Below, piece by piece: positions 6,392 through 36,200 of a stretch of DNA of 46,440 nucleotides. A program made the position numbers and the translations under genes. The first letter of the stretch is position 1. Each line of letters starts with the position of its first letter. Origin of the DNA: Escherichia phage vB_EcoS_AHS24; the sequence record NC_024784.1; one strand, 5' to 3'. Below the pieces are notes generated by a model. The model saw only the letters and a program-made list of their open reading frames with translations, had not been told where the DNA came from and searched no databases.

Positions 6392-6844
6392 ATGGCTTTA
6401 GAGTTTATGGAAGTTGTAGCTAAGACTTACGGCGACCTGGAGAGGTTAGTAAAGGCAAAAATGCTGGAAGGATGGATGCCATTTGATAGCTTAATTAACA
6501 ATAGATTTACTATCGCAATTGTTATGGTTAAGGGTAGTGATGCGCAGCTTACCGACTTTAGGATTCTCGGTGATAGCACTAGAGTTAAATTAATAAGCAA
6601 GGCTAACAAATTAATTGCTGATGACCCTGAGTGGGAGGTTTTCGGTCACCCTCAAATATTTGGCGCTGACGATTACATAGTTTCATTATCAAAAGGCTTT
6701 AAGGGAACTACTGGTAGGGATGGCATGGCTGGCCCACAAGGACCGCAAGGACCGCGCGGCGAAGTTGGCCCACAAGGTCCGCAGGGTGAAAAAGGAGATA
6801 CTGGACCTCAGGGACTAAAAGGTGATAAAGGTGATAAGGGGTGA
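6392..6844 (+). CDS. collagen-like repeat protein, N-terminal part
   Basis: C-terminal Gly-X-Y run [43 protein letters not shown] ending at GGGG-TGA. Confidence 0.6.
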
Positions 6845-7277
6845 TCCAGGAGCGCTCGTAACATGGAAAAAATTTAACCTAGTTAACACAGTTGGTTCAG
6901 GGGTGGACACTCAATTCCCTGGTATAGCTAACACTTGGTTTAGGGTGCAAGTAACATCATCATCAAGATTTACATTCTTTGCTCTAAAGGAAGGGTCTGG
7001 AACAACAAGCATTGATGGCGACGTTAAGTACAACGATGAGGATGATACTTATCGCAGGGTTAAGTATTCTGGAGTGTTCACATCGGCATCGAACTACACA
7101 TTTATTAACACAGGATTCGGCGTGACCTCAGCTAGATGTGTAGAGTTTTACACCTATCTAAATGATGGCTCTAGTGGTTATTTTTACAGGGTTGAGGTTT
7201 TCATTGCTGGCAGGCCTGCATTTACCACAATTACACAACCAGACTTCACCGTTAGAATAACAAGACTTGATGCCTAA
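6822..7277 (+). CDS. collagen-like protein, C-terminal part (frame +1 continuation)
   Basis: Overlapping ORF in +1 frame begins ..[10 protein letters not shown] continuing the Gly-X-Y register; likely one gene with the upstream ORF. Confidence 0.5.
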
Positions 7278-14753: not shown

Positions 14754-15104
14754 ATGGCATTAGAAACATTTCGCTGGTGTACTCAGGTTCAGGGCGGCTC
14801 AGCGAGCTTCACTAACGCGAATAACGTTAGGGTTGTTAGCTTTGGTAATGGTTATGAGCAAAGGGGAACTGGAGGTTACAGAACCAACAAACGCACTTAC
14901 AACATGACCTACACCAACACCAACTGGAAGGAAGTGTTAGACTTTTGTTTTGCACATATCATCACCCCGTTCGCATGGACGACTCCGCAGGGTGAGCTTA
15001 AGCTTTTTGTTGTTGCTCAGGACAGCATCAGCGTCACACCGAATACCAGGGAAGTGCAGACTGTATCAATGCAGTTTGTAGAAGTTTTCACCTCAATGCA
15101 GTAA
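14754..15104 (+). CDS. minor tail protein (lambda M-like)
   Basis: 116 aa immediately after tape measure. Confidence 0.55.
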   Translation: MALETFRWCTQVQGGSASFTNANNVRVVSFGNGYEQRGTGGYRTNKRTYNMTYTNTNWKEVLDFCFAHIITPFAWTTPQGELKLFVVAQDSISVTPNTREVQTVSMQFVEVFTSMQ

Positions 15105-15148
15105 ATAGCACGAATTGCTAAAGACAAAACTCAAGGATGAGTTATTAT
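15103..15148 (+). promoter_or_regulatory. promoter cassette copy (motif + 22 bp + TATTAT)
   Basis: AAATAGCACGAATTGCTAAA at 15103..15122; leader TTCATCGAGACGAGA follows; upstream of moron 15204. Confidence 0.6.
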
Positions 15149-15203
15149 GTATTCATCGAGACGAGATCGATAAACAAACAAAACAAACAACGAGGATTTA
15201 AAC

Positions 15204-15398
15204 ATGACTAACTTCCCTAAAGCTCAATTCGTACTGGTTTTCTTCCACAACGGCAAGCCTTTCGCAGAGACGATTGATAACACTGGTGATACACCAATGG
15301 TATACACTGGATACCATGACGTGTGGAATGAGCTTTCAGATGAGGATATTTCTTATTACACATCTAAAGCATCAAAAATTATCACTAGTGAAGATTGA
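15204..15398 (+). CDS. hypothetical protein (moron in tail module)
   Basis: 64 aa with own promoter cassette upstream and terminator downstream. Confidence 0.5.
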   Translation: MTNFPKAQFVLVFFHNGKPFAETIDNTGDTPMVYTGYHDVWNELSDEDISYYTSKASKIITSED

Positions 15399-15417
15399 TG
15401 TAAATTGAGATAAACTA

Positions 15418-15438
15418 AGACCCTACTGGGTCTTTTTA
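15418..15438 (+). terminator. intrinsic terminator
   Basis: AGACCC-tact-GGGTCT + T-run, after moron. Confidence 0.7.
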
Positions 15439-15451
15439 TTGGAGAAATATT

Positions 15452-21020: not shown

Positions 21021-21992
21021 TTAGTAGAAGTTGGGAATAAATGGAAGTGCCATTGATATGTTTGTATCAAATGGGAATTGCGCGCCAGTTTGAGTTGAAT
21101 AGTTACCTATAACAGTGCCTGGGACGGCTCTAACTGAACCTCCAGACATGCAAACACCCTTGTATCGTAAGTTATTATATCCACCAGTGACTCTAGTTGT
21201 CGCTCCGCATCTAAGTATTGGGAAGAACCCACCATTCACCGACTGGTAACCATTATTAATCTGCATAAATCCACTTAGAACAAATGGCCTCCTGACGCTA
21301 GAGAAAACTATCTGCCCAGCGCTGTTTGATATCGTTAAACCCGGACCAGCTACTGGAGGTGTATTATTGAAAATAACTAACTGAACGTAAGTACTTGCAG
21401 CAACATCATCAATCCCATTGTATGTTATATCCCTACACCATATCGTACTACCATCACTTTCAAGGGATACGTTTGGGTTATCCCATTTACCAAAAGGAAT
21501 GCCGCCAACTGGCAATGATGCAGAGCCATTAACCTGAATGCCACCAACCCAAGCAGCAGTCATTAATCTGGAATTGCTTGATATCGCTGTAAAGTCAGTC
21601 GAGTTCTCAACAAGGACACCGGGGATTGATTGTGATGATGCTGGTAAAATCTCAAAGCACTGACCGCCAAACTGCAATATGCGACCATTAGCGCCGTTAA
21701 AGTTACTTAATGTAATCCTTCCAACCCCATCGTTAACCTTCGAGAACCCATTCATGTAATAAACTTCTGGTATAACATCATATGCATCAACATAAACAGC
21801 CTGAGTTGGCAGGCAGAATGCTGTTGAGCCAGGAGTCATAGTCAAACCGAAATCCCATGATGATGCTGGTGAGCTTAACCCGATAGTGTTTATTGAACCA
21901 GTCACGGCTGGAACTCTCAAGCCAGCTGTGATTTCCATTGCTGGCCTTCCGTCATTCAAATCTATCAAGATACCTTGAGGCATTATTTCCAC
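21021..21992 (-). CDS. receptor-binding protein (putative)
   Basis: 323 aa reverse-strand ORF downstream of J-like gene, translationally coupled to upstream lipoprotein gene. Confidence 0.45.
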
Positions 21993-22226
21993 TCCTTTGA
22001 GCCGTGATCTGCAACTGAGCCGCCGTAGCCTCCACCAACCTTTTGCTCAATACCAGCATAACGAATATCAACCTCTCCAGCTGGAACAACTACGCCACCC
22101 TTCCATTTAGCTACGCATACACCAGAGGCCTGAGTTGCACACCATCCGTCAGGTCGCGGGCCAGAAGAACAACCTACTGTCATGATTACTGCTGCTGCGA
22201 TGATTGCTGATTTGATGAAGTTAGTC
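21983..22226 (-). CDS. lipoprotein, putative superinfection-exclusion (Cor/Llp-like)
   Basis: Signal peptide [20 protein letters not shown] with Cys at lipobox position; 81 aa from ATG 22226 with AAGGAA RBS; ORF track extends to 22303. Confidence 0.55.
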
Positions 22227-22267
22227 ATTTTGTATTCCTTAGTAAGTATGTTTCGTTTCGATGGAGT

Positions 22268-22314
22268 AACTATAGCAAAGGCTGCCGCGGTAGTCTTTAG
22301 CAAATCGTGCTATT
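22268..22314 (-). promoter_or_regulatory. promoter cassette copy (minus strand)
   Basis: Minus-strand AAATAGCACGATTTGCTAAAG, 23-bp spacer, TATAGTTAC, leader TCCATCGAAACGAAAC; upstream of lipoprotein/RBP operon. Confidence 0.6.
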
Positions 22315-22667: not shown

Positions 22668-22714
22668 AAAATAGCACGAATAATCAAAACGTATACGACA
22701 TGATTGGGTATAGT
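22668..22714 (+). promoter_or_regulatory. promoter cassette copy (variant motif)
   Basis: AAATAGCACGAATAATCAAA + 22 bp + TATAGT; upstream of Rha-like gene. Confidence 0.5.
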
Positions 22715-23717: not shown

Positions 23718-24677
23718 ATGAGCTTCAAGGTTTACACTAGCGACGAGTTAACCAACGAAGCCTACCACAAGGAGTCAGACCATGTGTCTGGCTCTGGTCT
23801 GGCTCACATCTTCTCAACTTGCCCCGCTGCTTATAAGTTTGCAGAGCATGATGATAGCAATAAGGCGTTAAAGTTCGGTACATTAGCCCACACGGTTATT
23901 CTTGAAAACTCTGTATTCGATGCGACTTACTATCGCCAGCCAGCGCAAGAAGAGTTTGAGGATCTGATTACTAGCAAGACTGCTTTGGCAACTCGGTTGA
24001 AGTCGATGGGTATTGCTGGAACATCTGGTAAGGATTATCCAGAATTAATGGAGATTCTGGCGCTGAGCGGTGAATCACTTAACGTATGGTGGGATATTCA
24101 GCGCTCTAGCGAGGTTAAAGCGAACGGTCGCGAGATTGTATCAGCTAAAGACTTTGACACAGTACATGCGATGCGAGAGGTGCTGTGTGGCATTCCTGCA
24201 TACAATGCGATAGTAAACAGCAAGACCGCTCAGCGAGAGTTATCAATTTTCGGTGAGATTAACGAGTGTGGTGTAAAGGTTCGTCTTGACCATGTTGACG
24301 TGGTTGATGATGTGGTTTATATACGAGATTATAAGACCACTAGCGACGCGTCTCCGTCTGGATTTGGGAGATTGGCATTAAAGCATGGCTACTTGCTAAA
24401 AATGTCCCTTCAACATGATTTGTTTGTTCGCGCCTTTGGTGAAAAACGTAAAGTTGTTGTACAGCTTCTTTGCCAGGAGAAGAAAAGCCCTTTCTTGCCA
24501 ATGTGCTACACGATAACTAAGGAGCAATTAAAGGTTGGTAGATTGCAGTATATGAGCGCGCTTTCTACGTACAAGCAATGCAAGAAACTTGATATTTGGC
24601 CTGGTTACGGATTTGGCGAAACAGAGATGGATTTGCAGATACCGGAATATGAGATGAAAAAATATGAATTGGCATGA
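23718..24677 (+). CDS. PD-(D/E)XK family recombination exonuclease
   Basis: VVYIRDYKTT D-x-K motif; sits directly upstream of Erf/SSB. Confidence 0.6.
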   Translation: MSFKVYTSDELTNEAYHKESDHVSGSGLAHIFSTCPAAYKFAEHDDSNKALKFGTLAHTVILENSVFDATYYRQPAQEEFEDLITSKTALATRLKSMGIAGTSGKDYPELMEILALSGESLNVWWDIQRSSEVKANGREIVSAKDFDTVHAMREVLCGIPAYNAIVNSKTAQRELSIFGEINECGVKVRLDHVDVVDDVVYIRDYKTTSDASPSGFGRLALKHGYLLKMSLQHDLFVRAFGEKRKVVVQLLCQEKKSPFLPMCYTITKEQLKVGRLQYMSALSTYKQCKKLDIWPGYGFGETEMDLQIPEYEMKKYELA

Positions 24678-25137
24678 TTGGTTTTATTACAGTGAAGGTT
24701 TAATATTTTGGAAGGTTAAGCCATCAAGAGTTATACGTGTCGGATGGGAGGCTGGAAGGGTCGAAAAGACAGGATACAAGAGAGTTGGTCTTGATAAGAA
24801 GATATACTTTGTGCACAGAGTTGTATGGGAGATGTTTAACGGACCAATACCGAAAGGAATGCAAGTCGATCATATAAATCATGATAATGGGGATGACAGA
24901 ATTGAAAACCTTAGACTTGTCACTTGCTCTGATAACAATAAAAATAAATCAATAGGCAAAAACTCAACAACTGGAGTTCAAGGTGTAACTTTTTGCAAAA
25001 GGATGAATAAATATAAAGCGTCAGTTAGGTGTGATGGTAAGTATTACCACTGTGGGTACTTTAACTCCTTGAGTGATGCTGCGGAATCAAGAAGGAATAA
25101 GCTGTTAGAGCTTGGATTTCATGAAAATCACGAATGA
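24664..25137 (+). CDS. HNH homing endonuclease (HNH + AP2-like domain)
   Basis: VDHINHDNGDDRIENLR motif; paralog of 562..1077; inserted between exonuclease and Erf. Confidence 0.75.
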   Translation: MNWHDWFYYSEGLIFWKVKPSRVIRVGWEAGRVEKTGYKRVGLDKKIYFVHRVVWEMFNGPIPKGMQVDHINHDNGDDRIENLRLVTCSDNNKNKSIGKNSTTGVQGVTFCKRMNKYKASVRCDGKYYHCGYFNSLSDAAESRRNKLLELGFHENHE

Positions 25138-25182
25138 TATAGCACGAATAGCTAAAACAAGATTAAATAGGTGAGGTATAGT
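25137..25182 (+). promoter_or_regulatory. promoter cassette copy
   Basis: ATATAGCACGAATAGCTAAA + 22 bp + TATAGTTAC + leader ATCGACAACGAGAGG; upstream of Erf/SSB. Confidence 0.6.
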
Positions 25183-25209
25183 TACCTAATCGACAACGAG
25201 AGGAAAAGT

Positions 25210-25860
25210 ATGAATACCAGCGATAAAAACACAAACGTTTTAAAGGCTCTATTTGAGGCCAAGAGCAAGTTTGCGAAGGCTGAAAAGTCCAAGCAGAACT
25301 CGCACCTTAAAAACAAATACGCAACCCTTGATGACGTTCTGGCGGCTGTAGAGCCAGGTTTAGAAGATAGCGGGCTAGTAATGTTCCAGAGTATGCTGGA
25401 ATCTGAAGCTGCAAATCAGATTAAGGTTGAGACTAAGATTTACCATGCTGAGTCTGCTGAATGGGTTTCTTTCCTTACTATCGTTCCTCTGTCTAAAAAT
25501 GATTGCCAAGGGACTGGCTCATCATTAACGTACGCTAGACGCTACGCCATTACGGCAGCCCTCGGCCTTAGCCAGGCTGATGATGATGGCAACCTGGCAG
25601 TCAAGAGTGTAAAAGACTGGAAGCGCGAAGTAGAGAAGGCAGAGACTCGAGATGAACTCGTAGAGGTTTACAAGGCTTGCAAATCACAAGCAGATGCCGC
25701 AACTTGGGGTATCGTGGAGAAATATATTATCGATAAGCAAGCCGAGATTAAGATGGCTTCTGCAAGTGGATTCAACCCAGCAAAACCAAAAGAAGTAACT
25801 AAAGTTGTTGCAAATGCAACGAATGAAGCTGTAGAATCACAATCAATCGAGCAGTTCTAA
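25210..25860 (+). CDS. erf: Erf-family single-strand annealing protein
   Basis: 216 aa from ATG 25210; N-terminal region typical of ERF family; ORF track start 25171 is GTG inside leader. Confidence 0.65.
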   Translation: MNTSDKNTNVLKALFEAKSKFAKAEKSKQNSHLKNKYATLDDVLAAVEPGLEDSGLVMFQSMLESEAANQIKVETKIYHAESAEWVSFLTIVPLSKNDCQGTGSSLTYARRYAITAALGLSQADDDGNLAVKSVKDWKREVEKAETRDELVEVYKACKSQADAATWGIVEKYIIDKQAEIKMASASGFNPAKPKEVTKVVANATNEAVESQSIEQF

Positions 25861-25907
25861 ATTAAAAGGTGCTTCGGCAACATAATCAAACGAGAAGAGA
25901 GAATAAT

Positions 25908-26330
25908 ATGCACGTAATTACAGGTCAGATTCGTAAAGCCCCTTTCACTAAAGACGGTCAGAATGCTAAAGGTAACTGGAAGATGTACGCTATCGAAATG
26001 AGCGAATCTTACAAGACAAAAGACGGCGAGCGCAAGTATACGAATTACCGAATTACACTTTTTGCTAGTGAGGCTCAGATTAGTTGGTATGACGAAGCAT
26101 TTCAGGAAGGAAAAGTTATCTCTGTGAGCGGCGATTCATTAGCGGTTAATGAGCGCGAACATAATGGCAAGACATATATTACGCTTGAGTTGCAGAATCC
26201 TCGATTGATGTTTAGTCAGCGAGGAGGTGAATCAGAAAAGCAGCAGCAGCGACAACAAGCTCAACAGCAACAAAGACAGCAGCCGCAGCAACAAAGCCGA
26301 TTTAGTGATGAAGAGGATATTCCGTTTTAA
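25908..26330 (+). CDS. ssb: single-stranded DNA-binding protein
   Basis: OB-fold-like N-terminus, Gln-rich linker, acidic C-terminal tail DEEDIPF. Confidence 0.8.
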   Translation: MHVITGQIRKAPFTKDGQNAKGNWKMYAIEMSESYKTKDGERKYTNYRITLFASEAQISWYDEAFQEGKVISVSGDSLAVNEREHNGKTYITLELQNPRLMFSQRGGESEKQQQRQQAQQQQRQQPQQQSRFSDEEDIPF

Positions 26331-30081: not shown

Positions 30082-30133
30082 TTTTATTTAATCCAATAAA
30101 AAGGTTGTACCGATTATGGCACAACCTTAATTT

Positions 30134-30607
30134 TTACTCTTTAGCTTTTCGTGCTTCTTCTCTTTCTTTCTTAACCTTTCGCCATGATTTACGCTGCGGC
30201 TTGGTTGCTAACTCAGCTTCTGTAACAACTCGAAGCATCTGACGCTTCTTGCATCGCAGTGTTAGAGGCTTGCCGTTACCGTCGAACTGTAAATCAGGTC
30301 GGCAGAATGTAGCCCTGAACCCCTCGCCAGTTCGCTTATATCGATTATGCGCAAGCTGTGCGCCGCGAGCTGAAATCATTCCCCGCTTACACCATTCTTC
30401 TACAGCCTGGCGCGTAACCTTTAGCTGCTTAGCTAGATTGGCCTTGCTGCCGTAGAAGTCCAAGACAATCTCAAGGCGCGCCCTTAATCCTGCTCTCACC
30501 TCATCCTTTAGTACATAGTAACCTGATGGACGCTTACGCGGCTTCTTGTCTTCTGTGCGAATTGTTCCGTTGTTACCATTAAGAGTACGCTTGTCAATTG
30601 AATCCAT
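30134..30607 (-). CDS. HTH DNA-binding protein (putative transcriptional regulator)
   Basis: LAKQLKVTRQAVEEW helix-turn-helix-like segment; basic C-terminus. Confidence 0.5.
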   Translation of the reverse strand: MDSIDKRTLNGNNGTIRTEDKKPRKRPSGYYVLKDEVRAGLRARLEIVLDFYGSKANLAKQLKVTRQAVEEWCKRGMISARGAQLAHNRYKRTGEGFRATFCRPDLQFDGNGKPLTLRCKKRQMLRVVTEAELATKPQRKSWRKVKKEREEARKAKE

Positions 30608-30617
30608 TTTCTCACCT

Positions 30618-30663
30618 CAATAGCACTTTTTGTTAAACATTGGTTTAGATGGCTGTTATTATA
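30618..30663 (+). promoter_or_regulatory. promoter cassette copy (T-rich variant)
   Basis: AATAGCACTTTTTGTTAAA + 21 bp + TATTAT + leader TCAATCGAACGAACA; upstream of helicase. Confidence 0.55.
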
Positions 30664-32643
30664 TCGTCAATCGAACGAACATTAAAGGCATTTGATATTA
30701 TGGAAAACCGATTGAAAACAATACAAAAACAGATTGAAGAATTGGGCGAAGATAAGATTAAAGAGATTCAAACTAAATTCACCTCTTCTAACGGTATGGT
30801 TCCGTATAGCTATCAGTGTGTTATGTACAATGAGATTGCAAAGCGCATTAGTCGCTATGAGCATCCATTTATCGCAATGGCTTCAGTTTCTGCTGGTAAG
30901 ACTCTGGTTTTTGGTATGGTTGCTAAGCGTTGCTCTGAGCTTGGCTTGCCTATGCTTGTTCTTGCTCGTCAGGCAGAGCTGGTTAGCCAGAATGCTTCTG
31001 AGATTTCTGATTACGGGGTTCCTAACTCCATTTATTGCTCTGGGCTTGGAATAAAATCATCTTATTTCCCTGTGGTGGTTGGCTCTGAGGGCACAGTAGT
31101 TGGCGGGCTTAAGAAGTCACTTGGCGATTTCTGTCCTGCGGTAGTTGCTATTGATGAGTGTCACCATATTGATGACCAGGACATAGCGGAGGCAATTGAT
31201 AACAATGAGACTGCGCAACAGGCATCAGATAAGGGGCGTAGCCAGTATACGGTCATCATCCTGACTTTAATGGAGCGCTGCCGTGCTAAGTATGGCAAGA
31301 ATCTTCGTATCTTTGGACTGACTGGTTCTCCTTTCCGTGGAACTACGCCAATAGTTGTTGAAAACAAAAAGGAGTTGGGATTTTGGCGTGAGACGGTCAC
31401 AAATATCGATACAAACTACCTGGTCGAGTTCGGTTCCGTGGTTCCGACAAACTTTGGTGCTACTGATGGCGTTGGTTACGACCTGTCAGAGTTTGATGCA
31501 TCATCTGAAGATGGTGTTCAGGATTACACTAAAGCCCAGCTTGAAGCCATGGATAAAAAGATTCAGGCATCTGGAACAATGACAGCGGAGATAATGAAGA
31601 AAGTATGGCTTGCCGCGAAAAACAGGAATGGAGTTCTGGTAACATGCGCAGGTGAGCGCCATTGCCACGAAGCCGCAAGTTACCTTCCTGAAGGTGAAAA
31701 GTTCTGCATTATAACTGGAAAGACTGGCGAGAAGCAGCGCAAGGAGTTGCTTGATAAGTGCTTTAGCGGGGAGATTAAATATTGCTTTCAGGTTCAGGCG
31801 CTAACCACTGGCGTAAATGTGCCTACATGGGATACAAGCGTTATTCTGCGTAAGATTGGTAGCCTTACGCTCCTGGTTCAGCTACTTGGTCGAGGAATGC
31901 GTAAGCTTAAGAAGCTCCATGAAGATAAAGGAATGGTCAAGAATGACCATTTGGTACTGGACTTCGCAGGAACGATGGACTCTATGGCATCATTGTACTT
32001 CAATCCAATTCTTGAGCAGGCTCAATATCAGCTACGAAAGAGTAATGGCAAGGAGACTAAGCAGTGTCCAGTATGCGGAACAGAGAACAGCTTCTTTGCT
32101 CGACGTTGCATGCATATTGATGAGAATAATAATCGCTGCGAATATTTCTGGGTTAGTCGCACATGTGAAGACCAGAAAGACCCACGAACCGGAAAGGTTA
32201 TCGTTAAAGGCTGCGGAGTTCAGAATGACGTTGCAGCTAAGATTTGTAGGGGTTGCGATTGCACTTTGCTTGATCCAAATCTCAACTTAAGCGGCAAACA
32301 TTACCGCAAGAACGACTGGTTTGATGTTGTTGACTTTAAGGTTGGGCTAACAAAGAACCAATCAGGAATCATCTACAACTACATCCTTGATGATGGCATG
32401 GGTGGGACATTCAAAGCTCATGAGGTTTTCTTTGTAGAGTCTGACCATCGAGTATGTAAAACGCTCTGGTTGAACAATGGAATTAAAGGTCACGTAGTCG
32501 ACATGAACGCTAAGCGATATATGGCTGCATATCGCAATGCTCGCAAGATTATGGAGTATGCGCAGTACATCCATGCTCCTAAGAGGGTAACTCACCGCAA
32601 GACCGCTAAAGGTGGCGATAATATTGCTAATAAGGAGTTCTAA
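30649..32643 (+). CDS. SF2 DNA helicase
   Basis: Walker A SVSAGKTLVF; motif II IDECHH; C-terminal Cys-rich zinc-finger region; possible true start ATG 30700. Confidence 0.8.
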   Translation: MAVIISSIERTLKAFDIMENRLKTIQKQIEELGEDKIKEIQTKFTSSNGMVPYSYQCVMYNEIAKRISRYEHPFIAMASVSAGKTLVFGMVAKRCSELGLPMLVLARQAELVSQNASEISDYGVPNSIYCSGLGIKSSYFPVVVGSEGTVVGGLKKSLGDFCPAVVAIDECHHIDDQDIAEAIDNNETAQQASDKGRSQYTVIILTLMERCRAKYGKNLRIFGLTGSPFRGTTPIVVENKKELGFWRETVTNIDTNYLVEFGSVVPTNFGATDGVGYDLSEFDASSEDGVQDYTKAQLEAMDKKIQASGTMTAEIMKKVWLAAKNRNGVLVTCAGERHCHEAASYLPEGEKFCIITGKTGEKQRKELLDKCFSGEIKYCFQVQALTTGVNVPTWDTSVILRKIGSLTLLVQLLGRGMRKLKKLHEDKGMVKNDHLVLDFAGTMDSMASLYFNPILEQAQYQLRKSNGKETKQCPVCGTENSFFARRCMHIDENNNRCEYFWVSRTCEDQKDPRTGKVIVKGCGVQNDVAAKICRGCDCTLLDPNLNLSGKHYRKNDWFDVVDFKVGLTKNQSGIIYNYILDDGMGGTFKAHEVFFVESDHRVCKTLWLNNGIKGHVVDMNAKRYMAAYRNARKIMEYAQYIHAPKRVTHRKTAKGGDNIANKEF

Positions 32644-33032
32644 TGGTTAAGGTTTTTCACGACAAAACAAGCACGGACAAGGCTAAAGAGGTTGTTCACC
32701 AAATAAATTCAATAGCTTGGGTTCGCCACAACCATCCAGAGATATTTGCTTTTCACGTGAAGAATGAAGGTCTCAAGTCTATCGGCACAGCAATGAAGGA
32801 CAAGCAGGAGGGAGTAATTAAGGGTGTATCAGATATTCTACTGATTGGACCAAATGGCTTTGCCGCAATAGAGCTTAAGCGAGCAATAAAATCAGATAGC
32901 AAGGTTTCAAAGGAGCAAAAGGAGTTCCTGGAAAAGGTATCAGAAACAGGAGGTTACGCGGCAATCTGTTATGGGTTTGAAATGTTTAAGTTGGCAATTA
33001 CAGATTATCTATCAAATAGCACGAATTGCTAA
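32643..33032 (+). CDS. VRR-NUC domain nuclease
   Basis: D...IELK-type nuclease core (DILLIGPNGFAAIELKRA); last codons STNC-stop are encoded by the promoter motif. Confidence 0.55.
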   Translation: MVKVFHDKTSTDKAKEVVHQINSIAWVRHNHPEIFAFHVKNEGLKSIGTAMKDKQEGVIKGVSDILLIGPNGFAAIELKRAIKSDSKVSKEQKEFLEKVSETGGYAAICYGFEMFKLAITDYLSNSTNC

Positions 33033-33059
33033 AGAGATTTCGCAAGGATGCGATATAGT
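33014..33059 (+). promoter_or_regulatory. promoter cassette copy
   Basis: AAATAGCACGAATTGCTAAA + 22 bp + TATAGTTAC + TTCATCGAAACGAAGAGAG; motif also encodes VRR-NUC C-terminus. Confidence 0.65.
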
Positions 33060-33090
33060 TACTTCATCGAAACGAAGAGAGAGAAACAAA

Positions 33091-33285
33091 ATGACTACTA
33101 TCTACACTGAAAAGCTGTACAAGTCACGCAAAACTAGTTATGAATATGAATTAGCAATCACCCCTGAGGGTTATATTCTTGATGATGGAGACGGTTACTC
33201 ATTCGAAGTTAGCCCAACATACAAAGATGATTTAGAGACTGTTAAAAACGCATTCGGCGAAAAATTTGATGAGGTGTCAGAATAA
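33091..33285 (+). CDS. hypothetical protein
   Basis: 64 aa from ATG 33091 downstream of cassette leader. Confidence 0.5.
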   Translation: MTTIYTEKLYKSRKTSYEYELAITPEGYILDDGDGYSFEVSPTYKDDLETVKNAFGEKFDEVSE

Positions 33286-33503
33286 TGAAATTAACCTTTG
33301 ATAAGCAATGGGAACTCTTTCAGGCAATGGTGGCGCAGGAGTTGAGTAAAGCTGGATATAAAAATGATGTTTGGGATTTAGCTTGGTGTCTTGATTATAG
33401 TTTCGAAGAGGATTATCTGAACACTGATATCGAAACATGGCGCGACCGAATGATTGCTGATATCGAAGAAATGAAGAAAGATTGCCCGGAGGATTTTTCA
33501 TGA
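33285..33503 (+). CDS. hypothetical protein
   Basis: 72 aa, ATGA-coupled start. Confidence 0.5.
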   Translation: MKLTFDKQWELFQAMVAQELSKAGYKNDVWDLAWCLDYSFEEDYLNTDIETWRDRMIADIEEMKKDCPEDFS

Positions 33504-33700
33504 TTACTGCGAATTGCGTAATGACGAACGGCTCATTCACCCTGCTCAATGAGTATGAATTCAAACTTGACCCGATTAATGACCAGGTTGAAATAGTTAG
33601 CGATGACGGATTTGCATGGAAGTTACATAATGAATTTGATGGGTACTACGGGTGTAATGATGCGAAAGGTAAGCATGTAAGTTTTCTTGTTTATGAGTAA
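33500..33700 (+). CDS. hypothetical protein
   Basis: 66 aa from ATG 33500 with GGAGG RBS. Confidence 0.45.
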   Translation: MITANCVMTNGSFTLLNEYEFKLDPINDQVEIVSDDGFAWKLHNEFDGYYGCNDAKGKHVSFLVYE

Positions 33701-33744
33701 ATAGCACTTTTTGTTAAAACTAAAATACAAGGATGGATTATATT
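33699..33744 (+). promoter_or_regulatory. promoter cassette copy (T-rich variant)
   Basis: AAATAGCACTTTTTGTTAAA + 22 bp + TATATT. Confidence 0.55.
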
Positions 33745-33900: not shown

Positions 33901-34136
33901 TAGTTGAAACCGGACGCGCCGCTGTATGGGCGCATTGTGGAGAGGCGGAATTGCAGGATGACATCAAGATGATAGGTAAATACTTTGATATTGATGACAT
34001 ATCTGTAGTTTTCAATGGGAAGTTTAGTTATATGAACCAGCGGCCACGCAAGTATGTAAGAGTTCCAGCAACGCCTAGCCTCGCAATGTATCGTGAGGAA
34101 GGTAAGAAGATATTTAAGAAAGGTGCGAAGAAATGA
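33897..34136 (+). CDS. hypothetical protein
   Basis: 79 aa from ATG 33897. Confidence 0.45.
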   Translation: MIVETGRAAVWAHCGEAELQDDIKMIGKYFDIDDISVVFNGKFSYMNQRPRKYVRVPATPSLAMYREEGKKIFKKGAKK

Positions 34137-34390
34137 ATTTACCTGGTCTAGATTTTGATGAGAGTAAGTATCAGGTTGTGTTTTTTGGTGAGAAGCCTTA
34201 TCGGAAGATTCCTTTCTCTGAGTGGATTCCTCCGGACTACCTCGATGTACTGGTGCAAATTGAGATTGGTAAAGCTGAGTTGATGTACTATTCGCCAGGT
34301 TGCAATATGATGATGCCTAGTGAGTATTCACCAGCAATTTCTGCTCTAGAAACTGAGTTTCTTGATTACTGGCTAAAAGAAGTAAAATAG
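34133..34390 (+). CDS. hypothetical protein
   Basis: 85 aa, ATGA-coupled. Confidence 0.5.
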   Translation: MNLPGLDFDESKYQVVFFGEKPYRKIPFSEWIPPDYLDVLVQIEIGKAELMYYSPGCNMMMPSEYSPAISALETEFLDYWLKEVK

Positions 34391-34430
34391 CACTTTTTGT
34401 TAAAACACATCGCCATGGATGGCGTATAGT
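34385..34430 (+). promoter_or_regulatory. promoter cassette copy (T-rich variant)
   Basis: AAATAGCACTTTTTGTTAAA + 22 bp + TATAGT + TTCATCGAAACGAGAGACG; upstream of phosphoesterase. Confidence 0.6.
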
Positions 34431-34541
34431 GTGTTCATCGAAACGAGAGACGATTCAGATGAAAACATTACTACCGTTGATGGCTATGCCATTAACCTTT
34501 ATAATCATGTACTTCATAATCTGCTAACAGGAAATTAAATA

Positions 34542-35675
34542 ATGGCTATAGCTAAAATCACCAACGAAGAGTTAAAGCAAGAACTGGCTAACGGTATGAC
34601 TAACAAGGCAATCGCAGAGAAGTACGGTATGAATATTCGTAACGTAGAGCTGCGTCGCAGCAAGTTGGCTAAGGCTGGGGATGGTCACGGTCGCGATGTG
34701 AGTAACCTAATTCCTCAGGGCTACATGGTTAAAGGTGTATCTAGCCTTGTTGATAATGATGGCAATGTGAAGTTGCAATGGGTTAAGTCCTCTGTTGATG
34801 CAGAGAAGCTTGAGGAGATGATGAATCAAGCGCGAGAGGCATTCTCTAGCGAGCTACCAAAAGAAAAAGCAGTTAAATCTGAAGGTCTGAATTTTGATGA
34901 AGATACTTTAGCTATGTATCCAGTATTTGACCTTCACATTGGCGCAATGGCCCACAAGCATGAGTGCGGAGAAAACTACGACACAGCAACGGCAGAGAAA
35001 GTAATGAACGATTATTTTGACTACGCCGTACAGAAATCTCCAAATTCAAAGAATGCTGTACTAGTGCTAGGAGGTGATCTGCTTCATTATGATTCTTTGG
35101 AAGCCAAAACTCCAGCCAGTGGTCACATCCTGGACAGTGACAGTCGCTACGCCAAGATTGTTTATGTTTGCATTCGAGCGGTTCGCCGCGCAATTCGAAA
35201 CATGCTTAGCAAACATGAAAACGTAGAGGTTAAAGTTATATCTGGTAATCATGATGAAAGTGGTATGGTTTGGTTGCGGGCTGCGCTTGCTGCATTTTAT
35301 GAGGAAGAGCCACGCGTTAGTATTGATGTTAGTCCCGCGGCAATGATGGTAACTAAGTTTGGTTCTACAATGCTTGGTTTCACTCACGGGCATCAAATGC
35401 GTAAAGCTGATACTCGCCTTTCGGTTATGGCTACTGACTGGCGACGTGACTTTGGTTTAAGTGATTATGTATACACCCACTCAGGACACTGGCATTCACA
35501 GAAGATTACAGAGACAAATCTTGGTATTGATGAGGTTCATGGTCAGCTTGGTTCACCAGATGCATATAGTGCGAATGGTGGATGGCGCTCACAAAGGCAG
35601 GCCGCGGTAATCATCTATCATAAAGAGTTTGGTGAGGTTGGTCGCTTTATCTGCCGTCCAGAAATGTTCAAATAA
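34542..35675 (+). CDS. metallophosphoesterase with N-terminal HTH-like domain
   Basis: Calcineurin-like motifs DLHIG, GGDLLH, GNHDE, THGH, GHWH; N-terminal KAIAEKYGMNIRNV HTH-like. Confidence 0.65.
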   Translation: MAIAKITNEELKQELANGMTNKAIAEKYGMNIRNVELRRSKLAKAGDGHGRDVSNLIPQGYMVKGVSSLVDNDGNVKLQWVKSSVDAEKLEEMMNQAREAFSSELPKEKAVKSEGLNFDEDTLAMYPVFDLHIGAMAHKHECGENYDTATAEKVMNDYFDYAVQKSPNSKNAVLVLGGDLLHYDSLEAKTPASGHILDSDSRYAKIVYVCIRAVRRAIRNMLSKHENVEVKVISGNHDESGMVWLRAALAAFYEEEPRVSIDVSPAAMMVTKFGSTMLGFTHGHQMRKADTRLSVMATDWRRDFGLSDYVYTHSGHWHSQKITETNLGIDEVHGQLGSPDAYSANGGWRSQRQAAVIIYHKEFGEVGRFICRPEMFK

Positions 35676-35693
35676 TATCACTTTTTGTTAAAG
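35674..35693 (+). promoter_or_regulatory. degenerate promoter-motif copy
   Basis: AATATCACTTTTTGTTAAAG; no TATAGT at fixed spacing; hairpin AAGCC-attcgag-GCTT follows. Confidence 0.35.
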
Positions 35694-35740
35694 CCATTCG
35701 AGGCTTTTGAGATGCGTCAGCTACAGATATAGGAATCAAA

Positions 35741-35938
35741 ATGATTACAGAGATGATTTTAGTTGCAAGCCTTTCATCTCCATTGGTATCTCAACAGTAT
35801 TGTGAACTTGGAAAAGAGATTTACCATGAAGGAGTGGAATTAAGAACGGTTGTTGATTGGCTTAATCACAGCACGATGAATATTGATGATAAAAAGATTG
35901 TCCTTGAGTGCTATATAGTGGAGGCAAATAAAGTCTAA
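35741..35938 (+). CDS. hypothetical protein
   Basis: 65 aa ORF. Confidence 0.45.
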   Translation: MITEMILVASLSSPLVSQQYCELGKEIYHEGVELRTVVDWLNHSTMNIDDKKIVLECYIVEANKV

Positions 35939-35981
35939 ATAGCACGAATTGCTAAAACGAAAATCAAAAGATGGGGTATAG
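35936..35981 (+). promoter_or_regulatory. promoter cassette copy
   Basis: AAATAGCACGAATTGCTAAA + 22 bp + TATAGTTAC within hairpin GATGGGG/CCCCATC + leader AAACGAGAGGA. Confidence 0.65.
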
Positions 35982-36014
35982 TTACCCCATCTAAACAAAC
36001 GAGAGGATACAAAG

Positions 36015-36200
36015 ATGGCTAAATTCACACAATCAGATGCACAAATCGAAGTTAAAGATGTTGGTTTTGGTAAGACCTTTAAGATTGCGCAGGCATACGG
36101 CTCTAGCGAAGATGATATAAAGGTTGACACTATTAACCTTACGTCTAAAAATGCACGTGAAATCGCTTATGCAATCCTTGCCGCACTTGGAGAGCGTTAA
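36015..36200 (+). CDS. hypothetical protein
   Basis: 61 aa, GAGAGG RBS. Confidence 0.45.
   Translation: MAKFTQSDAQIEVKDVGFGKTFKIAQAYGSSEDDIKVDTINLTSKNAREIAYAILAALGER

Follow-up and report, generated by a model that had tools for sequence, protein, structure and literature searches.

We analyzed the genome of Escherichia phage vB_EcoS_AHS24 (AHS24; NC_024784.1), a window of 46,440 bp that amounts to a whole Rogunavirus (Drexlerviridae) genome and is 99.6-99.9% identical to that of Escherichia phage bV_EcoS_AHP24 (AHP24), and followed up a 20-mer at positions 33014-33033 (+) which reads AAATAGCACGAATTGCTAAA. This 20-mer is one copy of a Drexlerviridae direct repeat, aaATAGCAC-N3-TTGnTAAA (hereafter the box), and forms the upstream half of a ~75-nt cassette made up of the box, a 22-nt hairpin-prone spacer, a -10 hexamer, a conserved start region (CATCGAAAC), a ribosome-binding site and an ATG. 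Boxes are about 2-fold likelier than other gene junctions to be the joints at which small genes are gained, lost or swapped. As an overall explanation, we consider it probable that the cassette is at once a factor-dependent promoter element, a stop for the gene upstream and a preferred mosaic joint.

A box repeated across Drexlerviridae

Searching AHS24 with the 15-mer AGCACRAATTGCTAA and allowing up to 2 mismatches, we found 10 copies where 0.39 were expected, a number reached in 0 of 100 shuffles. A scan with a looser pattern gave 15 good copies plus 1-2 degenerate ones (15-16 in all), which start at 15106, 25140, 30621, 33017, 33702, 34388, 35676 (degenerate), 35940, 43669 and 44512 on the plus strand, with a weak copy at 22672, and at 22312, 40012, 40210, 41172 and 42007 on the minus strand, with a weak copy at 30156. 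Copies are found in the small-gene regions at 33-36 kb and 40-45 kb, and every one in AHS24 is oriented in the direction of the genes downstream. The central triplet is GAA or GAT in 6 of the AHS24 boxes, TTT in 7 and AAA in 2.

We then assembled a collection of 714 box instances (597 distinct cores) from AHS24, five GenBank genomes and 55 IMG/VR loci recruited via the 529-aa protein at 38127..39716. The ungapped consensus over the 597 distinct instances is aAATAGCACtttTTGcTAAAac-N13-t..GgtATaaT...c.cAtc.aAAc. An 81-nt cassette query matched 218 phage records, all of them from T1-like phages of Escherichia, Shigella, Klebsiella and Citrobacter; in the annotated records among these, the match typically falls under two coding sequences for hypothetical proteins.

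The motif is unmentioned in the GenBank records of AHP24 and AKS96 and in the publication on these phages (PMC4070988). The 2024 re-annotation of phage TLS (German, Kropinski et al., PMC11447400) did, however, report a 21-nt direct repeat, aaATAGCACnnnTTGnTAAAA, at 21 places. The TLS repeat follows the direction of transcription, with start codons ~76 nt downstream of it, and its central triplet (AAA, TTT or GAA) divides the copies into three groups. The same paper mentions "similar repeats" for T1, Rtp and Rogue1, the last being a close relative of AHS24, lists a stoperator, an enhancer site or an UP-like element as options without choosing among them, and reports only three sigma-70-like promoters (PMC11447400). 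The AHS24 box has the same sequence, the same orientation rule and the same three types of center as the TLS repeat, and its distance to the ATG is 70-98 nt, compared with ~76 nt in TLS. Because the repeat had been published, only the ideas that it provides stop codons and marks module boundaries could be new. The TLS paper treats the 21-mer alone, without the fixed -10 partner, the hairpin-prone spacer, the conserved start region, the overlap with stop codons or the link to mosaic joints that we describe here.

The cassette as a predicted promoter

In the copy at 33014-33033 (+), the full cassette extends over 33014..33090 (+), with a hairpin at 33040-33053 in the spacer, the -10 hexamer TATAGT at 33054-33059, CATCGAAACGA from 33065, a purine-rich ribosome-binding region and the ATG at 33091. 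Calling a -10 hexamer when at least 4 of 6 positions matched, with A2 and T6 among them, we found one in 578 of the 597 distinct instances, at a distance from TTGnTA of exactly 22 nt in 463 and of 21-23 nt in 546. A G is present at -14 in 76% of instances, and the ATG follows 70-98 nt past the box. The hexamer at the usual -35 position (17 nt) is AAAACn, which is no -35. If transcription is taken to start ~7 nt past the -10, the box occupies roughly -52 to -32, and within it lies a pseudo-dyad, TAGCA-N5-TGCTA, centered near -42. Judging from these sequence features, the cassette, which stands before most non-structural genes and operons, is most likely a family-specific promoter whose box would be bound by a factor contacting RNA polymerase.

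Several other readings of the same elements were tried and set aside. The TTGCTA of the box is not an ordinary -35, because the spacer between it and the -10 is 22 nt in 80% of instances. A sigma-54 promoter (TGGCAC-N5-TTGCW) was rejected since the box, TAGCAC-N3-TTGC, is 2 nt short and has AG rather than GG in nearly all copies; that reading would also leave the conserved downstream -10 unexplained. An UP element is unlikely, as the segment from -46 to -38 is CACGAATTG and not A-rich. A generic promoter scan found 39 sites against 36.1 expected, which is no excess, and of the cassettes within the 30-46 kb covered it picked up at most 2.

The spacer and -10 region fold strongly, with a mean minimum free energy of -11.0 kcal/mol compared with -4.6 for shuffles, and 76% of instances reach -6 kcal/mol or below, compared with 22% of shuffles. 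A structured RNA of fixed fold was nonetheless rejected, since no pair of alignment columns rises more than 0.14 above expectation and the hairpins are thus in variable register; Rfam likewise returned no match for the cassette, its one hit in the genome being tRNA-Arg. Nor are the hairpins terminators in general, as a flanking run of T or A accompanies only 7% of them in the forward and 12% in the reverse direction, although a minority are terminator-like, such as those at 40194(-), 41156(-) and 35676.

We also observed that many cassettes, in all loci, carry GATG upstream and CATC downstream of the -10 (box positions ~30-33 and 49-52), with arms lengthened by covarying bases such as GATGGGG/CCCCATC, TAGGT/ACCTA and GGGTA/TACCC. 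In such cassettes the -10 would lie in a hairpin loop, and the hairpin may be a structure of read-through RNA, a DNA cruciform or a second protein site.

Two gene calls touch on cassette geometry as well. The AHP24-style call at 40013-40195 (-), with its start at 40195, overlaps the cassette at 40194-40210, and cassette geometry would put the real start at ATG 40129, yielding a 38-aa hydrophobic peptide (MKNISKAVDAVMEQVIKFGFFGFMGAIAVVVGKCLVGL) as in the 38-aa call of AKS96. The call at 34419-34538 (+), AHP24_45, begins ~31 nt past the start of box 34388 and upstream of that cassette's -10; the start is probably misannotated, and ~70 nt past the box there is an ATG that has a ribosome-binding site and apparently opens a very short hydrophobic ORF (open reading frame).

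The box as stop codon of the upstream gene

An earlier note on this genome had proposed that the motif provides the stop codon or the last codons of the gene upstream, and all of its statements on stop codons proved correct. In AHS24, 12 of the 12 boxes with a co-directional upstream gene contain the stop of that gene or lie within 5 nt of it. The stops are a TAG at box positions 1-3 and a TAA at positions 14-16, often with one more TAA 4 nt upstream; between them, the three stops leave no reading frame open. The VRR-NUC gene (32643..33032, +; VRR_NUC domain match) has its final five codons and stop (..N S T N C *) read from the named box copy, ending at TAA 33030-33032, and a 186-aa ORF at 43124..43684 (+) ends in the same way (..YSTNC*) within the box at 43669-43685, giving the tails ...SNSTNC* and ...YSTNC*. 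The box TAG ends three genes: 34133..34390, in the box at 34388..34404 (+); minus-strand 41170..41322, in the box at 41156..41172 (-); and 40208..40417(-), in the box at 40194..40210 (-), which has a G+C-rich hairpin between box and -10. For 14754..15104, 33482..33700 (whose box is 33702..33718, +) and 35741..35938, the stop is the TAA 4 nt before the box (TAAaTAGCAC), and the remaining stops lie 5 nt before the box for 24664..25137 and 3 nt before it for 34542..35675 and 40013..40195(-).

The same behavior was seen in a survey of 618 distinct box instances from 60 Drexlerviridae loci. In 249 instances the box TAG ended the upstream long ORF; the internal TAA did so in 72, the TAA lying 4 nt upstream in 59 and some other stop no more than 12 nt upstream in 43, so that the stop lies in or beside the box in 423 of the 553 instances having an upstream ORF. 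Endings at the internal TAA give the recurring tails ...NSTNC, ...NSTNS and ...YSTNC. We attribute this role to the presence of TAG and TAA in two frames (three with the upstream TAA) in a tightly packed genome: upstream genes run into the box and terminate there, with ...STNC tails as a by-product. The earlier note called 43124..43684 a paralog of the VRR-NUC ORF, which is wrong. A BLASTP comparison of the two gave E=15, and the STNC tail that they have in common is wholly box-encoded.

Mosaic joints at boxes

The earlier note further suggested that boxes are boundary sequences allowing modular exchange of small early genes. We defined breakpoints as the ends of high-scoring segment pairs of at least 85% identity and at least 300 bp, to which 57 loci contributed, and counted 0.67 breakpoints per box junction compared with 0.33 per other ORF junction (0.66 vs. 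0.35 with stricter gene calls). When orthologous junctions were counted once, 42 of 65 box junctions were broken compared with 116 of 278 others (odds ratio 2.55, p = 0.0014), and with the stricter gene calls the corresponding junction families were 32 of 46 and 74 of 156 (odds ratio 2.5, p = 0.011). Among the 475 breakpoints located within -150..+200 of a box start, the 10 nt before the box hold 131 and positions +40..+89 hold 178, with few between; joints thus cluster at the box 5' edge and in the stretch from the -10 to the start codon.

We also compared AHS24 directly with its close relatives AHP24, C119, Jk06, AKS96, phiKP26 and e4/1c. These comparisons contain ~19-20 indel or replacement events, about half of which are bounded by a cassette edge: 15105|15411, the HNH gene 5' of box 25140, the slot 35676-35940, 40212|40459, 40781|41111, 41562|41942, 43645, 43720/43723 and 44097|44509.

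Gene exchange in individual cases

One example of genes changing between retained boxes is the slot at 35672-36015, where we found five alleles, ranging from an empty site with a single box in phiEB49 to a 65-aa ORF in AHS24 and HNH genes in C119/AKS96 and in Sf12. In AHS24 the left edge of this hypervariable slot is a degenerate box at 35676..35692 (+; TATCAC...), which is followed by a hairpin and a T-run and has no clear -10, and the right edge is the box at 35940..35956 (+), with a 10-pair stem, GATGGGG../..CCCCATC, around its -10. A second slot, at box 41172 (41156..41172, -), shows seven alleles among 15 loci. Comparing gene content between motif copies in relatives, as the earlier note had proposed, thus gave a positive answer, genes being swapped while the boxes are kept.

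Four independent module indels leave a chimeric cassette at the joint. The crossover lies at the box 3' end in two of them (locus L043 vs. L051 and L060 vs. L056), within ~50 nt of common cassette in the third (L044/L047 vs. L057), and at CATCGAAAC in the fourth (L029 vs. L030).

Whole units also come and go. A moron in the tail operon at 15106..15440 (+), consisting of a box (15106-15122), a leader, a 64-aa ORF (15204-15398) and a terminator, is absent in AKS96 and Jk06 and replaced in C119. Its cassette (box, leader and homologous small ORF) recurs in locus L014 at the 3' end of the regulator gene, with 90% identity over 136 nt, with a full box on one side of it and a degenerate box on the other; the empty site in AHS24 has just the degenerate box at 30140..30156 (-), AAGCACGAAAAGCTAAA, in the 3' end of the regulator gene. 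Compared with C119, Jk06 and AKS96, AHS24 has an additional HNH gene (24664-25137) inserted directly 5' of box 25140. C119, Jk06 and phiKP26 have a different gene upstream of box 40194..40210(-), joined at the box 5' edge, and in Jk06, AKS96 and e4/1c other genes stand behind box 41991..42007(-), which heads a leftward small-gene operon, from a joint 65-84 nt past the box start. At the box at 44512..44528 (+), the joint of a replacement in C119 lies 3 nt before the box, and the upstream gene of AHP24 ends in its TAG. Between AHS24 and AHP24, single-nucleotide polymorphisms (SNPs) cluster over 42960-44592, and at the cassette of box 43669..43685 (+) divergence rises from ~2% to ~9% together with a 277-bp indel located 51-54 nt past the box start. 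A clean step in identity from 99.9% to 97.9% at this cassette would be too simple a description, given the spread of the SNPs.

Alongside these cases we noted several features of the variable regions. In Jk06 (L003 32538-33011), the slot matching 35672-36015 holds a gene with annotated similarity to ORF229c of the T4-type phage RB49, which hints at gene sharing between T1-like phages and T4-type phages that bear promoter-early stem-loop (PeSL) cassettes. Free-standing HNH genes are present or absent between close relatives at four sites (550-1077, 24664-25137, and C119 (L002) 21437-21931 and 31791-32282), and two of these four variable genes lie directly 5' of a box. Finally, the segment 45938-46157, which adjoins tRNA-Arg(CCT) at 45859-45934, comprises ~220 bp without a homologue in C119, Jk06, AKS96, e4/1c and Sd1 (11-15 bp instead) and is an indel hot spot without a box.

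Mechanism and alternative explanations

Under the explanation we favor, units of a cassette plus its gene or genes would be gained, lost and exchanged, with joints at the box 5' edge or between the -10 and the start codon. The chimeric joints would come from recombination between cassette copies over 4-50 nt of common sequence. AHS24 encodes a block of recombination genes at 23718..26330 (+), comprising a PD-(D/E)XK exonuclease (23718-24677), an Erf annealing protein (25210-25860) and SSB (25908-26330). Erf/exonuclease-type systems can use short homologies, which makes recombination between cassette copies plausible; the agent may be the phage's own Erf/exonuclease system or template switching during replication.

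Several points weigh against this explanation. With TTGnTA excluded as a -35, promoter activity would depend on a further factor, and transcription-start, RNA-seq or binding data for T1-like phages were not found in the searchable literature. The breakpoint and junction counts are phylogenetically non-independent. Joints at the box 5' edge (131) far outnumber those at its 3' edge (~36), and this dominance would be expected from selection for intact promoter-gene units no less than from crossing-over in the box. Precise absences of a module between boxes are only modestly commoner than between other junctions (5/232 vs. 38/4345), and a test of linkage between upstream and downstream flanks was noisy, with a weak difference (25/41 vs. 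85/170). Of the events among close relatives, about half are at junctions without a box or within genes (516|1109, 5876|7304, 22927|23441, 33500 and 45938|46157).

The module-boundary idea therefore stands in large part: the ~2-fold excess of breakpoints at box junctions, the five-allele slot and the four chimeric cassettes speak for it, and the box-free half of the joints qualifies it. Gene order conserved without breakpoints at the motif, which would have told against the idea altogether, is not what we found. The argument by which the earlier note reached it, that identical sequence at many junctions is a signature of recombination, is not evidence by itself, as the box is primarily a conserved expression signal.

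The box could also be purely regulatory, its coincidence with joints arising only from selection: illegitimate recombination would occur everywhere, with survival limited to products in which genes and promoter-gene units are intact, and boxes would in addition stand by chance before dispensable small genes with fast turnover. We regard this as a real but minor possibility. It agrees with the fact that non-box junctions are often joints too (0.33-0.35 breakpoints each), with box-free examples such as 516|1109, 33500, 41562 and 45938|46157, with a main breakpoint peak at the 5' edge of the box and not inside it, with the right side of the tail-operon moron, flanked only by a GTAAAT microhomology, and with the 38 precise module absences between non-box junctions. 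It does not readily account for the four indels that end at equivalent positions of two cassette copies, since a chimeric cassette is the classical signature of recombination between repeats, nor for the L014 insertion, bracketed by two boxes where the empty site has a single one, nor for the 2-fold excess that holds at the level of junction families. At the opposite extreme, the cassette would be a universal gene-docking junction, in which a factor-dependent promoter unites all accessory genes in one regulon, a stop in 2-3 frames keeps any upstream fusion viable, and a recombination site serves the Erf/exonuclease system to excise promoter-gene units and insert them again, via mini-circles or template switching; a role this comprehensive seems to us unlikely.

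Two further alternatives assign the box to a different protein partner. It may be a negative operator, stoperator- or Cro-like, through which a repressor-type phage protein shuts down early genes, with any role at gene ends and joints being secondary. This option was among those listed by the TLS authors (PMC11447400), and would suit the pseudo-dyad TAGCA-N5-TGCTA as well as the position of a Cro/YdaS-like helix-turn-helix (HTH) gene (30134-30607), which is divergent from a box and has a degenerate box in its 3' end. The orientation bias of the box also fits a stoperator of the mycobacteriophage L5 type, in which asymmetric sites in transcribed regions of a temperate phage bind that phage's own repressor; the fixed -10 partner, on the other hand, argues for a promoter element, and the rigid 22-nt spacing to a -10 without a -35 points to a positive role or direct contact with polymerase. 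The regulator itself is a weak candidate, and we found its role as box binder unsupported: its Pfam matches are below the curated cut-off, and its HTH segment, compared across 50 loci, shows no conservation beyond that of the other parts of the protein, although the box is nearly invariant. We therefore judge a negative operator quite improbable. Still far less credible is the suggestion that HNH homing endonucleases recognize the box and drive insertions next to it. Paralogous HNH genes do lie directly 5' of boxes in AHS24 (24664-25137) and C119 (31791-32282), but in the 60 loci only 6 of 28 HNH-like ORFs end at a box (21%), compared with 17% of all ORFs (p = 0.61), and the HNH gene at 550-1077 is not near one.

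Comparison with known systems

A close parallel is with the PeSL cassettes of T4-type phages, in which recombination between cassettes shuffles small genes and yields chimeric cassettes and mini-circles, the latter shown by inverse PCR (Arbiol, Comeau and Krisch 2010, PMC2839356; Comeau et al. 2014, PMC4122927). By analogy, the T1-like cassette resembles PeSL cassettes in how it appears to function, while belonging by sequence to the published T1-like repeat family. Both are composites of promoter elements and a stem-loop repeated among small non-essential genes, both bound the indels and replacements that separate relatives, and both form chimeric cassettes at joints, with PeSL crossovers falling between the -10 and the ATG or in the A+T-rich part. 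The differences are also clear. The T1-like cassette belongs to a different phage family and is unrelated in sequence; it has a strongly conserved upstream box without a consensus -35, unlike a strong sigma-70 -35/-10 promoter; its hairpins are mostly not terminator-like (the 7% forward and 12% reverse given above); and it overlaps the stop codon upstream.

Boundary or linker sequences and morons are reportedly known from lambdoid phages through the work of Juhala and Hendrix and of Clark et al. on HK97, HK022 and HK620. As those sequences are said to do, the box places a short conserved sequence at the borders of otherwise unrelated modules, and the unit at 15106-15440 has the promoter-gene-terminator anatomy reported for a moron. 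Lambdoid boundary sequences are, however, said to be heterogeneous and locus-specific, whereas the T1-like box is one repeat family throughout the genome and the phage family.

The architecture of the predicted promoter can be compared with class II activator-dependent or extended -10 promoters, in which CRP or FNR binds at -41.5 and lambda cI at -42. In common with these, the cassette has a dyad near -42 over the place of the missing -35 and a rigid distance to a -10 with G at -14. It differs in that the dyad is imperfect (TAGCAC vs. TAGCAA) and the activator is a putative one.

Other box copies and neighboring features

The remaining copies in AHS24 stand before a variety of genes. The box at 22296..22312 (-), found by motif scan, precedes a lipoprotein gene (21983-22228), and the box at 39996..40012 (-), from the same scan, is a TGGCAC variant. 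A degenerate box with 2 mismatches at 22672..22688 (+) has TATAGT at the canonical 22 nt and lies upstream of a Rha-family regulator operon. The box at 25140..25156 (+) precedes the Erf gene, with the HNH gene 24664-25137 directly 5' of it, and that at 30621..30637 (+) precedes a helicase gene and is divergent from the Cro-like regulator gene. At the other end of this regulator gene (30101-30156, -), the final codons form the degenerate box, AAGCACGAAAAGCTAAAGAG, with a strong terminator (30101-30128) directly after it, an arrangement conserved in Nouzillyvirus TH21 (L005 9154-9170).

We noted two further features elsewhere in the genome. Between the divergent small-gene operons, ~600 bp at 42008-42608 are without convincing genes and could be an origin or related to packaging; a 69-nt piece of the divergent region at 22403-22471 matches the counterpart of this segment in Jk06 and e4/1c, with only a 19-nt exact match in AHS24 itself. 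At 6815-6860, a G-run (GGGG in AHS24 vs. GGG in AHP24) splits a 294-aa AHP24 ORF into 6392-6844 and 6822-7277, a difference that looks like a 454 homopolymer sequencing error and not like biology.

Implications for T1-like phages

T1-like phages (Drexlerviridae) are common therapy candidates and laboratory contaminants, and their transcription signals are essentially unmapped. If read as a promoter, the cassette would provide a testable map of ~15 transcription units per genome, correct over-extended gene calls and flag small genes that are independently expressed. Its role as a preferred joint, if true, would mean that the PeSL idea holds in a second, unrelated phage family as well, and recombination from box to box would offer a handle for predicting and engineering the turnover of accessory genes. 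Should the cassette even turn out to be a universal docking junction, the PeSL principle would carry over from T4-type myoviruses to an unrelated siphovirus family, suggesting a general solution in virulent phages.

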